Origin: Calditrichia bacterium
Lineage (GTDB): Bacteria; Calditrichota; Calditrichia; RBG-13-44-9
Direction: 5' to 3'
Length of the DNA stretch: 40,547 nt
Assembly (NCBI GenBank): GCA_037381445.1
Contig: JARRQT010000031.1
Coordinates: forward strand, 1-40,547
Each line of letters starts with the position of its first letter. The first letter of the stretch is position 1. A program made the translations under genes and the position numbers. The notes under the pieces are model-generated. The model was not told the DNA's origin, made no database searches, and worked only from the letters and a program-made list of their open reading frames with translations. Below are positions 16,579-25,596 of the stretch, piece by piece.

Positions 16579-17217
16579 TCAAATTTCATCGGCCGGCTTA
16601 AATGTGGTCATTGCTTTTCTTGTTTCTTTTTTTCGCTCCTTTATGGAAGCCTTTTCAAATTTTTGGACACCCTGCGGTCCGACTACCCAGCTTAAGGGCC
16701 GTTTCTCTTTGCCGACGGCTTCACTGAGCAGGACCAGTCCTTCCATAAATGCATCCGGCCGCGGAGGGCAACCGGGGACGTATACATCCACCGGCATAAA
16801 TTTATCGACTCCCTGCACAACGCTGTAGATGTCGTACATACCGCCAGAATTGGCGCAGGAACCCATGGAAATCACCCAGCGGGGTTCCATCATCTGTTCG
16901 TAAAGGCGTTTCACGATTGGAGCCATTTTCATGAAAACCGTGCCCGCGATGATCATAACATCCGCTTCCCGGGGGGTGGCACGAATCACCTCGGCGCCGA
17001 ATCGGGCGATATCATATTTGCTGGTCAGGCTGGTAGCCATTTCCACATAACAGCAGGAAAGCCCAAAGTTGAAGGGCCACATGGAGTTTCTGCGCCCCCA
17101 GGCGATGAGGTCCTGCAATTTGCTGAAAAGAATTGATTTTTGAATTTCCTCTTCGAAAGAACCGCTTCCTCCACTCGCCTGCGAAGGATTACCCGGTTTG
17201 CTCAGCCGCCATTTCAT
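16579..17217 (-). CDS. nuoB: NADH-quinone oxidoreductase subunit B
   Basis: [18 protein letters not shown] and [13 protein letters not shown]. Confidence 0.97.
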
Positions 17218-17558
17218 ATTTTTATCTTCGTTTTATTGAGTGTTTTGTACTTTTTCAAAATATCTTTTCCCTTTAGGGCATAATCCAGGGCACCGATGCT
17301 CCACTCATAAATCAGGACGATGACCAGTATGCCAATGAAAATCAGTGCTCCAAAGTAGCCAGTCCATCCCACTTCGTTTATCGAAACCGCCCAAGCTACA
17401 ATGAACACTGCTTCCAGATCGAAAATCACAAAAAACATGGCCACCACATAGAAGTGGACGGGGAAACGAAGACGCGCGCTTCCGGTGGTTATCATTCCCG
17501 ATTCATAGGGATCTCCAGTGGTCCTCTCCTTGTGCCGCTCTCCGAGTAAAGCTGAGGA
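17214..17558 (-). pseudogene. nuoA: NADH-quinone oxidoreductase subunit A, 5'-truncated or disrupted as assembled
   Basis: The frame reads *SSALLGERHKERTTGDPYESGMITTGSARLRFPVHFYVVAMFFVIFDLEA. An in-frame TAG lies just upstream of SSALLG, so TM1 and the start codon are missing. Confidence 0.85.
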
Positions 17559-18098
17559 CTAACGCAAATTTGATTAAGAAACAGGCACTCCAAAATACCT
17601 GCAAATGAATAGCAATAACGGATATAAACCAAAAATTAATGACTGTTCTGGTCAGTCTTTGCAATTCTGCCACACTGGTGAAAACAGTAATTAGACATTT
17701 CTTCGAATTTTAGGTTTTTAAGAAACAAGCCGAAATCCTTTGAGAAGTACACCAGAACAATAATTAAAACATTTTGATCTAACGCATTATATTATATTTA
17801 AAAACAAACAAGAAATAAATCAAGCAAAATGATTTGAAAGATTTTTATTCAGGTATTTTATACCCGATTTCACATGTGAATCATTGAGTAATACTCAGAG
17901 CTTTCCCGAGTTGTTCCGCAATCATCCTGCAAAAATCGGTCAATAGGAAAATCTCTTACACAGAATTGGAATGAATTTCCAGAATTTAGATTATAAGGAA
18001 CCATATTCCATTTGATAACAAGATGATGAGTAGGAATTGCTTTTTGTTGAAATTTTTGCAGAATTATACCCCGGCCCCTGCATGCTGTGAGTTTTTTG

Positions 18099-18153: not shown

Positions 18154-19065
18154 ATCAAAAATCCATATAAAAATACAGCTATTTTCCGATGTGTTCACGA
18201 AACCCACCGGGGATTCAAGAACAAAGTTTCAGTCTATCACATACTCAAAGAAAAGGCATGTTATCCGCAGGGCTGTCTATATTTCCGCTGGAGGTGCAAG
18301 GAACTGAATAAAAAGAATAAATGCCATCGCGGATTTCAATATGTGGGCAGGAAATGCTTTGAATGCAAAGAATTCTATGAGGAGAAAATCCATAATCATG
18401 CGGAGGTGCAGGTCAGCACCGATGAATATAAAGCATTTTTAAAGGAGCTGGAATTATTTGATGACTGGATGCTGGAGATGCGAAACCGCGAGATTGAAAT
18501 TGCCGGGACAATTGATGGGGTGAAGCCGCATTTTGTGAAAAAAGTTTATCCCAAAGCGAGCTTCCTGTCGTTTCGAGGCTACATCCTGACTTTTAGGGAG
18601 ATCTATATAGGACGAGTCCATCTCGAAGATTACGCATATGCCCGCATTTCCGATCAGCTATACCAGAAATTGCAGGTCGGCGCGGGAGATGAAATCGAAG
18701 CGCGGGCGCGCGTAAAGCTCGATCACGGAAGATTAATTCTGTATGCCCTGAAAGCCATAGAGCCCGTCAAAAGGGGAGAACCGGCGATTTGGAGCGACCA
18801 GAAAGTGCAGCTCGCACGTGAAGTCTCCACGGAATTCACTATCCAGCCGGAGGAGTGCGTGCAATGCCCCTTTGGAGCGCTGATTGATGTTGAATATATG
18901 AAGGATCATCATTCCTCCCCCCGCCGGCAGTTGATGTGTCTTAAAGGAATTCGTGATTATCGGGATTGTTACGTGAAAGCAGAATATTGTGGTCTGGAAA
19001 ACGATGCGGATTCGGGTCCGCAGGAAGCATGCGGGCAATCATACAAAGCATATTATCCGCGCTAA
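18154..19065 (+). CDS. Hypothetical Cys/His-rich (metal-binding) protein, about 303 aa, possible central OB-fold; apparent ATC start
   Basis: The 18343 ORF frame stays open upstream to a TAA at 18133. AAGGAG lies 6 nt before ATC (18154). The extension adds FRCVHETH..CYPQGC..WRC..KCHRG ahead of KCFECK. The C-terminus has CVQCP..C..C. Confidence 0.7.
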   Translation: MKNPYKNTAIFRCVHETHRGFKNKVSVYHILKEKACYPQGCLYFRWRCKELNKKNKCHRGFQYVGRKCFECKEFYEEKIHNHAEVQVSTDEYKAFLKELELFDDWMLEMRNREIEIAGTIDGVKPHFVKKVYPKASFLSFRGYILTFREIYIGRVHLEDYAYARISDQLYQKLQVGAGDEIEARARVKLDHGRLILYALKAIEPVKRGEPAIWSDQKVQLAREVSTEFTIQPEECVQCPFGALIDVEYMKDHHSSPRRQLMCLKGIRDYRDCYVKAEYCGLENDADSGPQEACGQSYKAYYPR

Positions 19066-19148: not shown

Positions 19149-20537
19149 CTAATTATTCAGATCGGAGTTCCAGTCCTGGGTGCGTTTTACCAGACGCTCC
19201 CAATCAGGCTGATTGATTTCCCGGCTGTAGGTACTGTGCACCAGTTCGTAATCGCCGAATCCTCTCAGATCCGCGAATACAAAGATAACGCCGCCTTCCA
19301 GTTTGTGGTATTCCCAGATTTCATATGGCTTGGAGTCCGTTGCCATATAATGGCGCTCAATATTATCCGGGCGGCCGTACTGCAATAAAACTCTTCCCCG
19401 CTCCGATTTCCATCCATTTTTCCGGCCGTGCCCAAAGTTCGCGTTGGCGTAATTCACCCTTTCAAAATAATCCTGCCTGAACTCGTTAATTTCGGTTGCG
19501 GGATTGGGATCAAATTTCCTCCAGAAATTTGCCAGAAAAATTCGCTTGCTGTTTGTATCGAGGGTGGAAAATAGTTTTCTTTCCCGGTCGGTGGATATAT
19601 AGCGGGCCTGCTCAAATTGGGCTTCCATTTCTTCATCGCTGAGACCGGCGTATTCGGCCATATCCGAACCACGGCTCTGAAAAGCAACCACTGTATCCTT
19701 TTGCGTGGTTTGATTCTCGTTCGGTTTCACCATCCAAAACTTTTTGGTTTCATGAACAATATTCCCGGTCTGTTCGTCCGTGATGTCCAGATTTAAAAGA
19801 TAGGCCGCTGAGGGAAGCGCGATGATATTATACCCTGCCTCATGCAAAGCCGATCTTCCCGGTTTCTGATCGGTATTTTCCGGATATTCCCGGATAAAAC
19901 ACCGAACAGTGTATTTGCCACTCTCTTCTTCGGAATAATTGAGATTATAGGTTTCAGCATAATAGTAGATTATCGGCAGCGCGACGCTGTAAGTGCAGGA
20001 GGGATTTGGCAGAACATGATATGTGTTTTTGTTGAATTCGTCCTTGGTTTTGCTTTTTGATATTTTGCTGGCAAATTGTATGTCGCTCAACTTCAGAGAA
20101 TCCATCCCGAAAGGGCGTGTTTGAAAATCGAATTCATATTCACCGGATTTGTTCGAATTCGCATCCCGGACCACAACCTTTGTTTTATATTGGCCCTGCG
20201 GCAGCTCGAAATAAAAAGTGTTGATGAACTGTCTTGTGGGGGATATCTGGCCCAGCGAGTCGACAGTGCTGCGGACAGTCTTTATGTTTTTGCTGACAAT
20301 TGAATCTCCCGTTTGCACTTGCACAAGCGCAATATAGTCAGCCTGGTACTTATTCTCTTTCTGCAAATAGCTCAGATTGTTCTGGTAGAAAGAAAGATAG
20401 ACTTCCAGATAATTCTTATTATCATTGCCCCGGTACATCGCATGATCTACGGTAAGGGGGATAAAAGGGGTTTGAGCGAAAAGCGAGCCGGAAAAGAGCA
20501 CAATCAGGGGCATGATTGATTTAAAAAGCCTTTTCAT
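19149..20537 (-). CDS. GWxTD-domain exported protein
   Basis: Signal peptide and Ig-like N-terminal region. The C-terminal part reads FLANFWRKFDPNPAT..NEF...RVNYANANF...GWKSERGRVLLQYGRPD..PYEIWEY..FVFAD. Confidence 0.85.
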   Translation of the reverse strand: MKRLFKSIMPLIVLFSGSLFAQTPFIPLTVDHAMYRGNDNKNYLEVYLSFYQNNLSYLQKENKYQADYIALVQVQTGDSIVSKNIKTVRSTVDSLGQISPTRQFINTFYFELPQGQYKTKVVVRDANSNKSGEYEFDFQTRPFGMDSLKLSDIQFASKISKSKTKDEFNKNTYHVLPNPSCTYSVALPIIYYYAETYNLNYSEEESGKYTVRCFIREYPENTDQKPGRSALHEAGYNIIALPSAAYLLNLDITDEQTGNIVHETKKFWMVKPNENQTTQKDTVVAFQSRGSDMAEYAGLSDEEMEAQFEQARYISTDRERKLFSTLDTNSKRIFLANFWRKFDPNPATEINEFRQDYFERVNYANANFGHGRKNGWKSERGRVLLQYGRPDNIERHYMATDSKPYEIWEYHKLEGGVIFVFADLRGFGDYELVHSTYSREINQPDWERLVKRTQDWNSDLNN

Positions 20538-20653
20538 TGCAAATCCTCTGCTTCTTGTATGATATAAAGTAACGACTTATTATAGCCCGGAATCAGGTTT
20601 TGTTCCAGGAAAAAAATATATGCCAGATAATATGAAGATTTTAAAAACCAGGG

Positions 20654-20685
20654 AAAATAAACAGGGGATGCCTTGGCATCCCCTG
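20654..20685 (-). terminator. Rho-independent terminator
   Basis: Perfect inverted repeat CAGGGGATGCC-AA-GGCATCCCCTG followed by TTTATTTT on the minus strand. Confidence 0.85.
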
Positions 20686-20720
20686 CGGAGTTGGGAGGGA
20701 GGTTTTGACCTTTACAGGTC
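20654..20720 (-). ncRNA. Candidate ~67-nt small RNA with a C-rich anti-SD-like segment
   Basis: Has its own promoter, a 5' GNRA hairpin (GACCT-GTAA-AGGTC), single-stranded AAAACCTCCCTCCCAACTCC, and a terminator hairpin with U-tract. Confidence 0.6.
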
Positions 20721-20726
20721 GAAAGT

Positions 20727-20755
20727 AAAATAATAGATTGATATAAATTTGTCAA
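20727..20755 (-). promoter_or_regulatory. Sigma70-type promoter for the candidate sRNA
   Basis: TTGACA (20755-20750), 17 nt, TATTTT (20732-20727). Predicted +1 is about 20720. Confidence 0.7.
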
Positions 20756-20796
20756 GTGCTTTTTCAAAATACTACAATAAAAATGAATTGAACAAA

Positions 20797-21564
20797 TTAC
20801 CGCCAGAGTACCGTATATATCAACCCGCTGAGAAAGGCATAGGAAACCCCCAGCGAAATATCGGACAAACGGTCATATTTTTTAGTATTGCTCCAATACT
20901 GATCTATCAATTTTGGATTGGTGGTTTCCCGGTACTTGCTGTAATTATCATCCGCTATATTTTTAAGGTAGAATGCCAGCCAGTGCGTGACAACGGTGCT
21001 GGTCAGAAAAATGAATTTCGATTTTAGACGGGTATGGAAAAGCGCATATCCGAAAGAAGTATCTTCTTCCTTTGTGATGTTCAAATCCAACGGCTCCAAT
21101 TCAAACAGATAGGGTTGCTGTTTTTGCAGTCTGAATTCCTGACTCCGGTAGCCGGGCTTTTCCAGTCTGAAGGTTTTGCCCTGGTTCTCATCAAACGGAA
21201 TGGTCAGCGGCGTCCGGCCCAGCATTCTGTTTTTCAAAATTAGTCTGGCGTTATAGGGAATGCTGTTAATGCTGACTTCTTTCTGAAACCTGAGGTGTAT
21301 AGTGGTGTCCTGGTTGCTGTACAGCGTGAAGGTTTGCATCAAGTTGGTCATATTCCAGATACCGCTAAAAGGGGAAAGTGCCTCAAGGCGGTGTGGACCC
21401 GGTCTTAATTCCAGATTTTCCAGCGGCGTGCTGCCTATAATCACCGAATCCAGGCGAATCTGCACATTTGAGGGAACTGAATAGATTGACAGATGCGCCG
21501 GTTCCTCCTGGGCGCCGGCGAATAAGAACAAGAGTAATATCAGAAAAACGCTTAGTATCTTCAT
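20797..21564 (-). CDS. PEGA-domain exported protein with C-terminal hydrophobic helical hairpin
   Basis: Signal peptide and two PEGA-like repeats (SIYSVPSNVQIRLD..IGSTPL; SINSIPYNARLIL..LGRTPL..LEKPGY). ATGA overlap with the upstream gene. Confidence 0.8.
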   Translation of the reverse strand: MKILSVFLILLLFLFAGAQEEPAHLSIYSVPSNVQIRLDSVIIGSTPLENLELRPGPHRLEALSPFSGIWNMTNLMQTFTLYSNQDTTIHLRFQKEVSINSIPYNARLILKNRMLGRTPLTIPFDENQGKTFRLEKPGYRSQEFRLQKQQPYLFELEPLDLNITKEEDTSFGYALFHTRLKSKFIFLTSTVVTHWLAFYLKNIADDNYSKYRETTNPKLIDQYWSNTKKYDRLSDISLGVSYAFLSGLIYTVLWR

Positions 21565-22756
21565 TTTTTATTGTCCATCTTTTTGACAAGCTGTTTATTA
21601 CCCAGGCAATAGATATGGTCATTGGAAGTGTGGAAGAATATCCGATTGCGGTAAATGATGGGAGAAGATTTGATGGGCCGGTTAAACTCCTCACTATACA
21701 GCAATTTTCCGCTTTTCCTCTCCACCACATAAAATGTCTTATCCCAGGAACCAAAATAGATAAAATCCGGCCCGGCCAGAGGTGCCGTATTAATAATTCC
21801 CTTTGCTGAAAATTCCCATAAAATTTTCCCGGTGGCAGCATCAAGCGCGATTAGCTTATGCGCATTATTTCCAACATAAACCGCGCCATCCCGGTATGCC
21901 GCATTTCCGTAAATGGAGCCATGAGTTTCCCTTTCCCACAAAATTTTCCCGGTGGCAGCATCAAGCGCTGAAATGGTGCCGGCGGTACTGCCGATAAACA
22001 GCTTGTTATCTCCCACAACCGGACCGGCATAGAGATTTTCCGCTAACCGGGAAGTCCATATTTTTTTCCTCCATCGGCGTCCAGGCAGTAGACATTACCT
22101 TTAATATCTGTAAAATATATCCGGCTGTTCAGGCTGGCGGGAACGCCAAAAAGAGAAGATGCTGCTGTGAACTCCCATTTCTTTTCCCCCGAAGCCTTAT
22201 CGAATGAGAAGAAATCGCCGTTAAATGCACCGACGAACAGGTTTTTTTCCAGCAGAAGGGGAGACGTGTTTAAATTCGGAAGCTTGTTTTCCCATATTTT
22301 GTCCAATTTGGAAATGTTAAAGGCACCCAGTGTCTTATCGCCTAGATTTGCGGCATAATAAAGCACATTATCCGAAATTGTGCCAGAATGACTAAAGCCC
22401 GGCGCCAGCCTGCCGTCGCCCATCATTTCGCCCCGATCGGATTTAATGAAGGCCAGCATTCCGTTCCGGGTTGTGAAGATCAGGTAATTATCCACTGCCA
22501 GCATCTGGTCGGTCACCACCGAACGATAGCGTTTGTCCCACAAGACCTCATAGGGCGGCAGCACATCATTTTCGACTGCATTCTGGCGCTGATTGTTTTT
22601 GAATGCGGTCAGCCAGGATTCTTCAGGATTTTCATAAGCTTTTTGAGGAATATTCAATTTCACCAGGCCCGCGCACTGCAGGAAGATGAATGCTGTCAGT
22701 CCAAGCAATCCGCTTTTCAGAATTCTTCGAGTTATTTTGTGATCAGGCATTTTCAT
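21561..22756 (-). pseudogene. BamB-like PQQ-type beta-propeller lipoprotein, split by a 1-nt deletion in a homopolymer (about 398 aa if repaired)
   Basis: Lipoprotein-like signal (..FIFLQC) and repeated AxDxxTGxxxW blades in both ORFs (22043-22768 and 21561-22016). Adding one A to the A7 run at 22061-22067 gives DADGGKKIWTSRLAENLYAGPVVGDNKLF and joins the two ORFs. Confidence 0.85.
21813..21968. repeat. 36-nt direct repeat (1 mismatch), 120 nt apart, encoding ALDAATGKILWE twice
   Basis: TTCCCAYAAAATTTTCCCGGTGGCAGCATCAAGCGC at 21813-21848 and 21933-21968. Confidence 0.9.
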
Positions 22757-25596
22757 CAGAAATCCCATCCAAAGAAAAATTGTGTAAACCAGCTGGAAGT
22801 AAATTTTTTGAAGTCGGTGGTCTTCCCAATGTCCAGACGCAGCACCAGAAAGCCGCCCAGGTTCATCCGGACACCGAAGCCGGTGCTTCCTATCAGGCCA
22901 TTCCAGGTAGTGTTCCAGGCGTTTCCCGCATCCAGGAATAGAGCACCCCGGATTCCCTGGAAGCCCATGCCGAGAAAGGGGAATTTGATTCCCAGATAAT
23001 CGATGAATGGGAAGCGCAATTCATTGGAAATGAAAGCGATTTTCTCTCCCCGGATAGACCAGCGGGGGTAACCGCGCATGTCCCAGCTGCCGCCCAGGTA
23101 GTACCAGCGGGTCTCTTTTCCCGCATTGTATAGAGTCATCAAACGCACCGCGTATGTTAAGTTGGTGCTCAAACGAAAATATTGCCGCAGATCCACCGCG
23201 AACGTGTAATAATTAACATTGGACCAGCGGAGGTCGTAAGTATTGCCGATGGTGATATTATAGCGGTGACCATCGATTGGACCAGTATACCACCAGATCG
23301 AATTATCGGAGATGAAGGATAGCCAGTTTGAAGTAAGAATGGCATATCGGCGGTAGGTTCCAACCACATCTTTATCCGAATAGCTCAGGTTCGAATTAAA
23401 CTCCATGCGGTTAAACTGTGTGAATGGATAACTGATGGTGAAGAATCCGCCGACCCGGTCTTCGTAATAAAATCCGTCTTTATAATTGTAATACCGTCCG
23501 GCAAAGCGGAACAAACCGTAACCATAATTCGTGCGTTTTTCCAGGGACACCTTGGTGACAGCGGCATTAAAACTTTTCAGGAAATCACCCCGGCTCTGGG
23601 AGTTGTTGTAAACCAGTATGTAATACTGGTCATTTCCGAGAAGATCGGTGAAGGCCAGCAGCGCCCCGCCGGTAGTCCCCCAGAAAGGATCCTGACTGAC
23701 CTGAGTCTGGGCAATATCCAGATCATATTTTTTGCGGTATCGCAATTTGGAAATGACCTTGCTTCCGGATAGCCGGTTGAAATGCCATTGCCGGTGACCC
23801 CACATGGTGTGGTTGGCGAGAACTGTGGAGGTGGAATCGATCTTCTCCCGCAGGTGGTCCATCATGCGAATCTGAAATCGGTTGTTCTCATAGGCCGTGA
23901 AGAGCAGCCGATTATCACTGGCCCATTCAGGATCGAAAGCCGCGTTCGCAAAAAAGGACACTTTCTTCAATTTTACTTCTTTATAACTTTCTGCATCGAG
24001 CTGCGGCACACCGGTCAGATCTGCAACCCATATGTTTAAGGAAGAATCGCGGTCGGAGGTAAAGGCGATATAATTTCCATCGGGTGACCAGACCGGTGTG
24101 TTGTCCTGAAATTTTCCGGCTGTCAGATAATAGGTCAGATCATTATCCAGGTCATACACAAACAGGTTGTAGGCCCATTGGTTGCCGTACCGGGTCCGGT
24201 CGGAGGAAAAGACGATTTTATGTCCGTCCGGTGAAAAAGCGGGTGCCTGATCCTCGTAGAAATCATTCGTCAGGCGGATTAATTTGTCTTCATTTTTGCG
24301 GAAAATATAGAGATCCTGTTTGCCGCTGAAATCCAGTCCTGTGAAAACAATAGTGTTTCCGTCCGGCGAAAATGACGGCGATGAAATCCCCACGATGTCC
24401 GCCCACTGATGACGCTGCACAACCCTTTCTTCCGGAATATTATAGATATAAAGGGCATCGTTCTCGCCGCTCTTGGCCACGAATGCCAGGTTGCCCTGCT
24501 TGTCCACATCTATTTTGCTGGTAAACAAATGAAACGATTCGAATTCGGAAGTTCGCTCCCCTTTTACCAGCGTTTTCAATTTTGCGGAGTGTTCCATTGG
24601 CAGGGTCTTAAGGTCGGACATATAGATGTTTGAATATCCGGTCCGGTTTCCCACAAAGACCACCTTCTCATTTCCTTCCGCATCCTTGTAATAGGCGGGT
24701 TTGAAATTATACCCCCTCCGGACAATAGTCTTGGTCACCATCTTGGACATATCGTTATTTTTTAAAAGGGGATAATATCGCTTCTTGAGGCTGTATATCC
24801 ATTCCTGATCAAATTGTTCATATGTTTTTCCCACCACTTCGGTAAAGACATCCGAGAACTTGCTGTACTTCCAAATCTGGTCCATCAGCAGCAGGACCTT
24901 CTCCTCGCCATAATTCTCTGAAATATACTGGAGAATGGCCTGGCCTTCCTTATACATCATGAAGGTGCCGTATATTTGATACATCCGGGATAGCGGCACG
25001 ACGTAGTTATTCAACACCGCATCTTTCATTACCATTTCCGCCTGAGAATCCCAGCCGCTGGACCAGTATTCCGCCAGTCCTTCCGTAAACCACAGGGGAG
25101 GATAGGTTCCCTCAAAACGGGAATGCTCTTTGTTCACGAAATAGATCTTGCTGTGCATAAAAACATGCACCAGCTCGTGATAGATGACTTTACGGAACTG
25201 ATTCATATTCCCGTCGCTGGGAATAACCACCCGGCCCTTCAGAAATTCAAAAAAACCGCCCACGCCTTCCGGTATAAATGAAGGGGTGACATTGGTTTGC
25301 TGAAAATGAAGGTGTGAACTGTAAAATATAAGAGGGATGCGCCGGTTGATGGTAAAATTGAATTTATTCTCGAGGTACCGGTAAGCTTCCTCAGCAAAAT
25401 TTGCTCCCTGCTCCGCCAGCTCTTCCATTTCCGGATAATAATAAATATCGAAATGATCTGTTTTTAAAATATGCCAGTTAAAATCGGTATATTGAATCTT
25501 ATTCCGGCCAAAATAAAACCATTGCGCATGGGCATTTTGAAATAGAAAGGAACTGAGCAGAATAAAAATAGGGAAGAATTTTATTGAAGCTTTCAT
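22756..25596 (-). CDS. Outer-membrane protein: N-terminal MA-clan (gluzincin-like) Zn peptidase + TolB/PD40 beta-propeller + C-terminal Omp85/BamA-type beta-barrel
   Basis: Signal peptide; HELVH..PLWFTEGLAEY; repeats of P.FSPDG..I.F; barrel with GGSWDMRGY (VRGF/Y-like loop 6), ELRFP, FLDAGNAW, GFGVR and terminal FFFGWDF. Confidence 0.85.
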   Translation of the reverse strand: MKASIKFFPIFILLSSFLFQNAHAQWFYFGRNKIQYTDFNWHILKTDHFDIYYYPEMEELAEQGANFAEEAYRYLENKFNFTINRRIPLIFYSSHLHFQQTNVTPSFIPEGVGGFFEFLKGRVVIPSDGNMNQFRKVIYHELVHVFMHSKIYFVNKEHSRFEGTYPPLWFTEGLAEYWSSGWDSQAEMVMKDAVLNNYVVPLSRMYQIYGTFMMYKEGQAILQYISENYGEEKVLLLMDQIWKYSKFSDVFTEVVGKTYEQFDQEWIYSLKKRYYPLLKNNDMSKMVTKTIVRRGYNFKPAYYKDAEGNEKVVFVGNRTGYSNIYMSDLKTLPMEHSAKLKTLVKGERTSEFESFHLFTSKIDVDKQGNLAFVAKSGENDALYIYNIPEERVVQRHQWADIVGISSPSFSPDGNTIVFTGLDFSGKQDLYIFRKNEDKLIRLTNDFYEDQAPAFSPDGHKIVFSSDRTRYGNQWAYNLFVYDLDNDLTYYLTAGKFQDNTPVWSPDGNYIAFTSDRDSSLNIWVADLTGVPQLDAESYKEVKLKKVSFFANAAFDPEWASDNRLLFTAYENNRFQIRMMDHLREKIDSTSTVLANHTMWGHRQWHFNRLSGSKVISKLRYRKKYDLDIAQTQVSQDPFWGTTGGALLAFTDLLGNDQYYILVYNNSQSRGDFLKSFNAAVTKVSLEKRTNYGYGLFRFAGRYYNYKDGFYYEDRVGGFFTISYPFTQFNRMEFNSNLSYSDKDVVGTYRRYAILTSNWLSFISDNSIWWYTGPIDGHRYNITIGNTYDLRWSNVNYYTFAVDLRQYFRLSTNLTYAVRLMTLYNAGKETRWYYLGGSWDMRGYPRWSIRGEKIAFISNELRFPFIDYLGIKFPFLGMGFQGIRGALFLDAGNAWNTTWNGLIGSTGFGVRMNLGGFLVLRLDIGKTTDFKKFTSSWFTQFFFGWDF

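Follow-up and report, generated by a model that had tools for sequence, protein, structure and literature searches.

The locus described here raises the question of what an Omp85-type outer-membrane barrel does when it lacks POTRA domains, carries a zinc peptidase and a beta-propeller at its N-terminus, and is encoded together with two partner genes. The window, by which we mean the whole stretch of 40,547 nucleotides analysed, is contig JARRQT010000031.1 (C31) of a Calditrichia genome (GCA_037381445.1; 5.1 Mb, 92% complete). Between its nuo operon and a VanZ-like gene, three minus-strand genes overlap through TGATG at 22758-22754 and ATGA at 21564-21561, an arrangement and a set of open reading frames (ORFs) that agree with a preliminary description of this DNA. 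We give a probability of roughly 45% to the reading that these genes form a conserved, single-copy envelope module, apart from canonical BamA, which would mature or quality-control envelope proteins at the outer membrane. The nearest relatives are metagenome-assembled genomes titled Calditrichaceae, Calditrichia or Calditrichaeota, with 68-81% identity in gene 1. The unit is laid out as follows:

Gene 1, 22756..25596, minus strand: 946 amino acids with a Sec signal, gluzincin peptidase, TolB-like beta-propeller and 16-strand Omp85 barrel (Pfam, AlphaFold2 model, fold matches).
Peptidase domain of gene 1, 24757..25524, minus strand: residues ~25-280, with H140, E141, H144, E172 and Y215 (invariance, Peptidase_MA_2).
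TolB-like beta-propeller of gene 1, 23827..24744, minus strand: residues ~285-590 (TolB fold match, PD40).
Omp85 barrel of gene 1, 22759..23727, minus strand: residues 624-946, with WD(L/M)RG(Y/W) in loop 6, FxDxG, and Gly943 in the last strand (model, alignment).
Gene 2, 21561..22756, minus strand: BamB-shaped beta-propeller lipoprotein of the PQQ_2 type (Pfam PQQ_2 on both of its halves in the window).
Gene 3, 20797..21564, minus strand: 255 amino acids with a signal peptide, two PEGA domains and a C-terminal hydrophobic helical hairpin (PEGA twice, hydropathy).

The domain calls for gene 1 bear out the earlier suggestion of a protein without POTRA domains but with an HExxH...E peptidase, PD40 repeats and an Omp85 barrel. 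Pfam places Peptidase_MA_2 (PF13485) at residues 88-270 with 35.4 bits against a cut-off of 32.4, PD40 in three stretches, and Omp85 (PF01103) at residues 674-931 with 39.4 bits against a cut-off of 24, and returns no POTRA domain at E<=0.01. TIGR03303, the BamA model, does not match either, so that both marks of BamA membership are missing. The HELVH motif occupies residues 140-144 and the downstream Glu is residue 172; H140, E141, H144, E172 and Y215 are each present in 94/94 aligned sequences. In a wider set of 62 sequences, Y215 is found in all and the other four in 61, the sole exception being a fragment without its N-terminus. HExxH, a downstream Glu and a conserved Tyr together place the domain among the gluzincins of clan MA. 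Mean column identity is 0.78 in the peptidase region, compared with 0.73 in the barrel. The best-conserved part of the protein is the mature N-terminal segment (residues 25-50; window 25524-25447, minus strand; column identity 0.85), a candidate active-site plug or barrel-docking peptide; residues 22-32 are poorly modelled.

An AlphaFold2 model built from the 94-sequence alignment (predicted local distance difference test, pLDDT, 84; predicted template-modelling score, pTM, 0.77) contains a helical peptidase domain, then the propeller, then 16 strands spanning residues 624-944, as counted from DSSP. The propeller superimposes on TolB (1c5k; VIA-align Z 26.5, root-mean-square deviation (rmsd) 2.3, 242 residues aligned) and the barrel on Deinococcus radiodurans BamA (8xnb; Z 22.1, rmsd 4.6, 304 aligned) and Sam50 (Z 21.9), with Foldseek in agreement; the C-terminal domain is thus modelled as the 16-stranded Omp85 barrel that had been predicted. 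Sequence motifs of the BamA/TamA type are present in this barrel, namely loop-6 RG(F/Y), FxDxG and the last-strand glycine, and among the 94 sequences R841, D889 and G943 occur in all and G842 in 83. We take loop-6 RG(Y/W), FxDxG and the last-strand Gly to be the closed-lid (lid-lock) and lateral-seam motifs of BamA and TamA, and their retention, on that assumption, argues against an open pore.

The three-gene order is widely kept, which is what the check on gene-order conservation had asked of it. Gene 1 is matched in 85 of 86 Calditrichota genomes, and an orthologue, which we counted as a row at >=50% identity, is present in 79. Gene 2 is adjacent in 66 of these 79 and gene 3 lies within 2.1 kb in 70; both hold in 64 and at least one in 72, and in four of the seven orthologues without an adjacent partner the match runs to <1 kb from the downstream contig end. 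In a second phylum (the G086 phylum, whose locus L024 is titled Ignavibacteriota) we counted an orthologue-level match in 56 of 251 sampled genomes; 40 of these 56 loci were examined with profiles built from Calditrichota only, and gene 2 was adjacent in 37 and gene 3 found in 33. Among metagenome loci, counted from the best 80 of 667 where the flank sufficed, gene 2 is adjacent in 56/57 and gene 3 present in 40/46. The wider gene 1 clade includes named KSB1, Latescibacteria/Zixibacteria and Eisenbacteria records. The genes flanking the unit are variable and, as judged from motifs, of housekeeping type, and no transporter genes occur among its recurring neighbours. As related genomes are not independent, the counts are a record of inheritance and should not be read as a statistical test.

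In the window, the loss of one base from an A/T run at 22060 breaks gene 2 into 22043-22768 and 21561-22016. The missing base is present in contigs of 3/3 sequencing runs (at most two samples, one of them the probable source), and relatives carry a single ORF of ~390-400 amino acids; a programmed frameshift and a pseudogene were both rejected on these observations. The same contig lacks 24 nucleotides, in frame, at 19892 in its GWxTD gene (described below) relative to contigs of the three runs, and its nuoA (17214-17560, minus strand) is 5'-truncated where two runs' contigs hold ~137 more bases at 17548, which is likely an assembly deletion. Since these further losses lie in the same contig, an assembly error is the simplest reading of the split. 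The contigs of the three runs differ from the GWxTD gene at other letters too, and a strain difference is possible there.

The product of gene 2 had been described as a BamB-like lipoprotein, and the PQQ_2-type propeller (PF13360, 110 bits in the intact orthologue of locus L013), the lipoprotein-type Cys (62/62 sequences) and the BamB-like shape stand; membership of the BamB family proper does not, as that orthologue scores 131.8 on the BamB equivalog TIGR03300, below its cut-off of 285.2. This genome has one copy each of genes 2 and 3. A complex prediction for two L013 proteins, run without controls, covered the propeller and barrel (A4 262-925) and the lipoprotein (A2 60-393), with the peptidase domain and gene 3 left out; it gave no verdict (score 0.00).

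For gene 3, the label of PEGA protein needs a similar adjustment. The two PEGA domains of the window's copy are real, but PEGA is detected in only 41 of 64 orthologues, and it is the C-terminal helical hairpin that is conserved; in families f5 and f6 mostly the hairpin alone is matched. Median hydropathy (KD19) is 1.28, a moderate value, for helix 1 and 1.79 for helix 2, which is compatible with either the inner or the outer membrane and does not settle between them. Identity with DUF5683 (PF18935) was considered for the hairpin and is not supported by profiles (0/64 members match; hhalign probability 0.7-0.8%). Column identity is 26-27% in genes 2 and 3 and 54% in gene 1, so the partners evolve faster.

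A separate canonical bamA, expected elsewhere in the genome, was found on contig C98, where its product scores 482 against a TIGR03303 cut-off of 297 bits, has POTRA domains and is encoded beside skp and a TamB-family gene. The genome has 12 Omp85-family matches. Three further peptidase-propeller-barrel proteins, on C55, C208 and C46, are 22-29% identical and all have HExxH. The clade of the C46 protein is present in 85/86 Calditrichota and 31/151 G086-phylum genomes and has fixed partners of its own: a DUF5683-like gene downstream in 60/61 loci and, upstream in 54/61, a protein whose tail is of the type IX secretion system (T9SS) type by motif (65 loci examined, four dropped from each count for short flanks). 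In this genome the conserved run (L148:3653-12941) encodes a PorV-family protein, a T9SS-dependent, inactivated M6-like protease, the Omp85 protein and one or two DUF5683-like proteins, which suggests, from gene content, that the clade is linked to type IX secretion. The genome also holds a second TamA/TamB-like pair, on C129, and several patatin-like Omp85 candidates, on C69, C125 and C231, whose GxSxG-type motifs were read by eye.

How might such a module work? The Omp85 barrel would hold two domains, a zinc peptidase predicted to be active and a propeller, at the periplasmic side of the outer membrane, a placement that we infer for the N-terminal domains because they precede strand 1 and because PlpD, an Omp85 protein with an N-terminal enzyme, offers a precedent. 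Peptidase and propeller may trim or break down envelope proteins as these are assembled, the lipoprotein being a putative adaptor and the hairpin protein a possible membrane partner. The unit is inherited almost universally and in single copy, its barrel has BamA-type motifs and its envelope partners are fixed, all of which points to a housekeeping role, and the analogy with the zinc proteases BepA, YcaL and LoiP, which serve quality control of outer-membrane proteins in E. coli (PMC13067283), favours maturation or quality control. That the paralogous C46 clade has its own fixed partners is consistent with a module. Protease activity, contact among the three proteins and the proposed role are likewise inferred, and several points weigh on the other side. 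Gene order speaks for co-inheritance and does not by itself show a complex; 7/40 G086-phylum loci have no gene 3 and 3/40 no adjacent gene 2; the peptidase belongs with the M1/collagenase-type gluzincins and not with the M48 enzymes of the BepA type; and the presence of four peptidase-propeller-barrel proteins in one genome could equally reflect specialised roles or a single general role in quality control. To our knowledge, no route of substrate delivery has been described for such a protein without POTRA domains. The literature yielded no data on activity, substrate, localisation or mutants.

One alternative, which we regard as unlikely but worth weighing at length, is that the barrel belongs to an assembly line for co-encoded clients, inserting the gene 3 hairpin protein, which the peptidase would trim, and perhaps flipping the lipoprotein, with each paralogous clade serving small outer-membrane clients of its own. 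Two clades each encode a downstream protein with a signal peptide and a hydrophobic helix (gene 3 here, the DUF5683-like protein in the C46 clade), the C46-clade DUF5683-like C-termini end in an aromatic-tipped, strand-like segment, helix 1 of gene 3 is moderately hydrophobic, and the faster evolution of the partners would suit clients. Among the hairpin's structural look-alikes in the Atlas are clusters of DUF5683, some of which carry LpoB, CsgG or outer-membrane protein domains, although this is a lead only and the profile comparison of the hairpin with DUF5683-like proteins was not significant. Helix 2, moreover, has a hydropathy that fits an inner-membrane anchor, and the C55 and C208 paralogues have no such adjacent gene in this genome. 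Somewhat more doubtful is a nutritional or recycling peptidase, in which the barrel would be an anchor or gated channel, the propeller would filter peptides as in tricorn or DPP-type enzymes, and the partners would be scaffolds. Whole-model fold searches returned lists filled by propeller and barrel matches, tricorn among them, and the peptidase profile matched collagenases weakly (E 0.09 and 0.64). The peptidase matches tabulated in a 2014 catalogue of Omp85 proteins (PMC4104836) are to PDB entries whose codes correspond to tricorn factor F3, to M1 aminopeptidases and to collagenases. Near-universal, single-copy and highly conserved inheritance is, however, more typical of housekeeping genes, the closed-lid motifs are kept, and transporter genes are missing from the recurring neighbours.

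The two remaining alternatives appear less probable again. Gene 2 could be an ordinary BamB serving canonical BamA, with gene 1 a protease accessory that docks on the main machinery of beta-barrel assembly (BAM) and the operon serving to co-regulate accessories. Gene 2 is the sole member of its family in the genome at E<1e-8, its best natural PDB matches include BamB structures, and several Calditrichia have the unit close to, or divergent from, a tamB-like/bamA/skp/lpxD cluster; but other PQQ-type propellers outscore BamB, the equivalog score falls far short, and gene 2 tracks gene 1 almost perfectly, all of which makes this quite improbable. We consider it very unlikely that gene 1 is an autotransporter-like surface protease whose barrel exports its own peptidase-propeller passenger. 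Type Vd secretion was once proposed to use this layout, an enzyme at the N-terminus and an Omp85 barrel at the C-terminus (PMC4104836), yet PlpD, the model for that idea, keeps its enzyme domain in the periplasm (PMC11116518), and gene 1 would have to export a folded passenger of ~570 residues without POTRA domains.

The envelope module thus remains our preferred reading. A bolder and frankly speculative extension, which we would not expect to hold, is that peptidase-propeller Omp85 proteins make up a further class of machines for outer-membrane assembly, one that lacks POTRA domains, has its processing protease built in and works with clade-specific co-encoded partners, inserting or maturing hairpin and lipoprotein clients that BamA leaves, and that the window holds one complete machine together with an uncatalogued, order-wide anti-Shine-Dalgarno RNA. 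Most of the Omp85 members studied assemble or translocate proteins. If insertion or maturation does work without POTRA domains, the known range of the scaffold would widen.

Downstream of the unit, the gap behind gene 3 and the gene that follows contain these features:

GWxTD-domain protein, 19149..20537, minus strand: 462 amino acids; neighbour in one family only (TIGR04514 above cut-off).
Candidate small RNA (sRNA), 20654..20720, minus strand: ~67 nucleotides, with a 5' hairpin, a single-stranded C-rich 17-mer and an intrinsic terminator.
Invariant C-rich 17-mer core of the candidate sRNA, 20687-20703, minus strand.
Intrinsic terminator of the candidate sRNA, 20661-20686, minus strand.
Sigma-70-like promoter of the candidate sRNA, 20727..20755, minus strand: consensus scan 10/12.

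The GWxTD protein had been described as following the unit, and its membership did not survive comparison. It begins 259 nucleotides past gene 3, behind a promoter-like site, the conserved candidate sRNA and a strong terminator, and an orthologue follows gene 3 in only 9 of the 69 genomes that have both, all in the window's family, although contig breaks may account for some misses; the distance between the two is 2.8, 1.2 and 0.16 Mb in three genomes that are each a single contig. On the rare adjacency and the intervening promoter and terminator, a fourth subunit was rejected. A GWxTD gene follows gene 3 in 4/34 metagenome loci; in three of the four it is another paralogue (E 1e-14 to 1e-19), found in a clade apart, so that the adjacency arose at least twice, yet in few genomes and not as part of the core. 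That paralogue stands directly behind gene 3 at L317:9634-11118 and also in L318 and L322, an independent recruitment. A resemblance of the GWxTD protein's C-terminal domain to BamE was considered and not borne out; the PDB search gave no sequence match better than E 2 and the Atlas search gave GWxTD-like clusters only. A literature search on GWxTD found no paper. Elsewhere, the gene directly downstream of a paralogous GWxTD gene encodes a different PQQ-type propeller:

Second GWxTD-propeller pairing: G065:C1:236092-238645; G063:C1:2955203-2957747; G064:C4:4990-7183; G050:C123:5051-8043.

The 259-nucleotide gap holds the region's longest terminator-like stem with a promoter-like site just upstream, and a 76-nucleotide segment there folds with a z of -6.4. 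The exact 17-mer core occurs, once per genome, in 34 of 37 genomes of the order and in 0/49 other Calditrichota, the reversed control giving 0, and all 30 loci read by eye have TTGACA at a short, similar upstream distance, the 5' hairpin and the terminator. Across an alignment of 28 copies, pairing holds in 97% of cells, and two-sided changes occur in 7/14 pairs (0/500 shuffles; slid controls 41-52%), the structure having been drawn from the same 28 sequences, which favours the pairing score. The candidate lies behind gene 3 in 10/12 loci of family f1 and in other contexts in 18 loci of f2 and f3, and because it occurs in other gene contexts a role as GWxTD leader was rejected. With its own promoter, conserved core, covarying stems, terminator and independence of flanking genes, it has the layout of an sRNA and is likely a separate transcription unit whose C-rich core would pair with ribosome-binding sites. 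When 5,722 crudely defined start regions of the genome were searched for targets, the energies were no better than those of 12 shuffled cores, the four operon start regions scoring only -4.0 to -11.4. A look for RNA data carrying the locus listed none. Rfam gave no match at gathering score; under strict filters, the sRNA model found nothing in 101 G086-phylum genomes and only weak matches beyond the order, the best at 1.8e-5 in one genome. The element is a candidate for a new Calditrichota regulatory RNA absent from Rfam, and a lead separate from the protein module. Yfr1 of cyanobacteria likewise has a 5' hairpin, an ultraconserved unpaired C-rich linker and a terminator hairpin, within 54-69 nucleotides (Voss et al., 2007; PMC2190773). 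The candidate has a different core sequence and was found in one Calditrichota order only; the likeness shown is one of layout.

Convergent to the unit, at 18343-19065 on the plus strand, lies a Cys-rich ORF that is conserved in several family members, whose versions are ~60 residues longer at the N-terminus; it has no match among Pfam or NCBIfam. A gene with a Cys-rich N-terminus is found upstream of the unit in nine Calditrichia loci, and at L023:2009-9876 the unit is divergent from such a gene, which is followed by a tamB-like/bamA/skp/lpxD cluster.

Among known systems, the closest is the 'WD40-like' Omp85 class defined by Heinz and Lithgow (2014; PMC4104836). Gene 1 has the same architecture, with a TolB-like propeller before the barrel and no POTRA domains, and clusters with a listed member: Caldithrix H1XRH5 groups with P0121, whose identity to gene 1 is 56.7% across 937 columns. 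H1XRH5 appears in Table S3 of that paper with BamA-barrel, TolB-propeller and 'aminopeptidase' matches, and the passages on the class discuss the propeller only; the main text never uses the word 'peptidase', and the portions examined make no mention of partner genes. The protease-propeller-Omp85 architecture put forward in the preliminary description is real, but the protease fusion is not new, since H1XRH5 had been tabulated with a peptidase match. One paper of 2024 refers to 'WD40 and peptidase domains' (PMC11358297), another of that year still calls the class uncharacterised (PMC11116518), and PMC11014939 has nothing further on it. Our search turned up neither a functional study nor an account of the partner genes, although supplements and subscription papers may hold one; the unit is a catalogued protein class with a partner set not found in print. 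The class has had no assigned function since the 2014 catalogue, and this locus makes it testable through an invariant catalytic set, two fixed partner genes and orthologues in a cultured species (H1XRH5, Calab_2848, Calab_2847). PlpD (Hanson et al., 2024) similarly places an enzyme domain N-terminal to an Omp85 barrel, but it has a patatin domain with one POTRA and forms homodimers, whereas gene 1 has a peptidase, a propeller and co-encoded partners. BAM together with BepA shares with the unit an Omp85 barrel with BamA motifs, a PQQ-type propeller lipoprotein and a barrel-linked zinc protease; the unit differs in having no POTRA domains, a fused Peptidase_MA_2 gluzincin instead of a separate M48 enzyme, a lipoprotein that falls below the BamB cut-off, and a separate BamA in the same genome.

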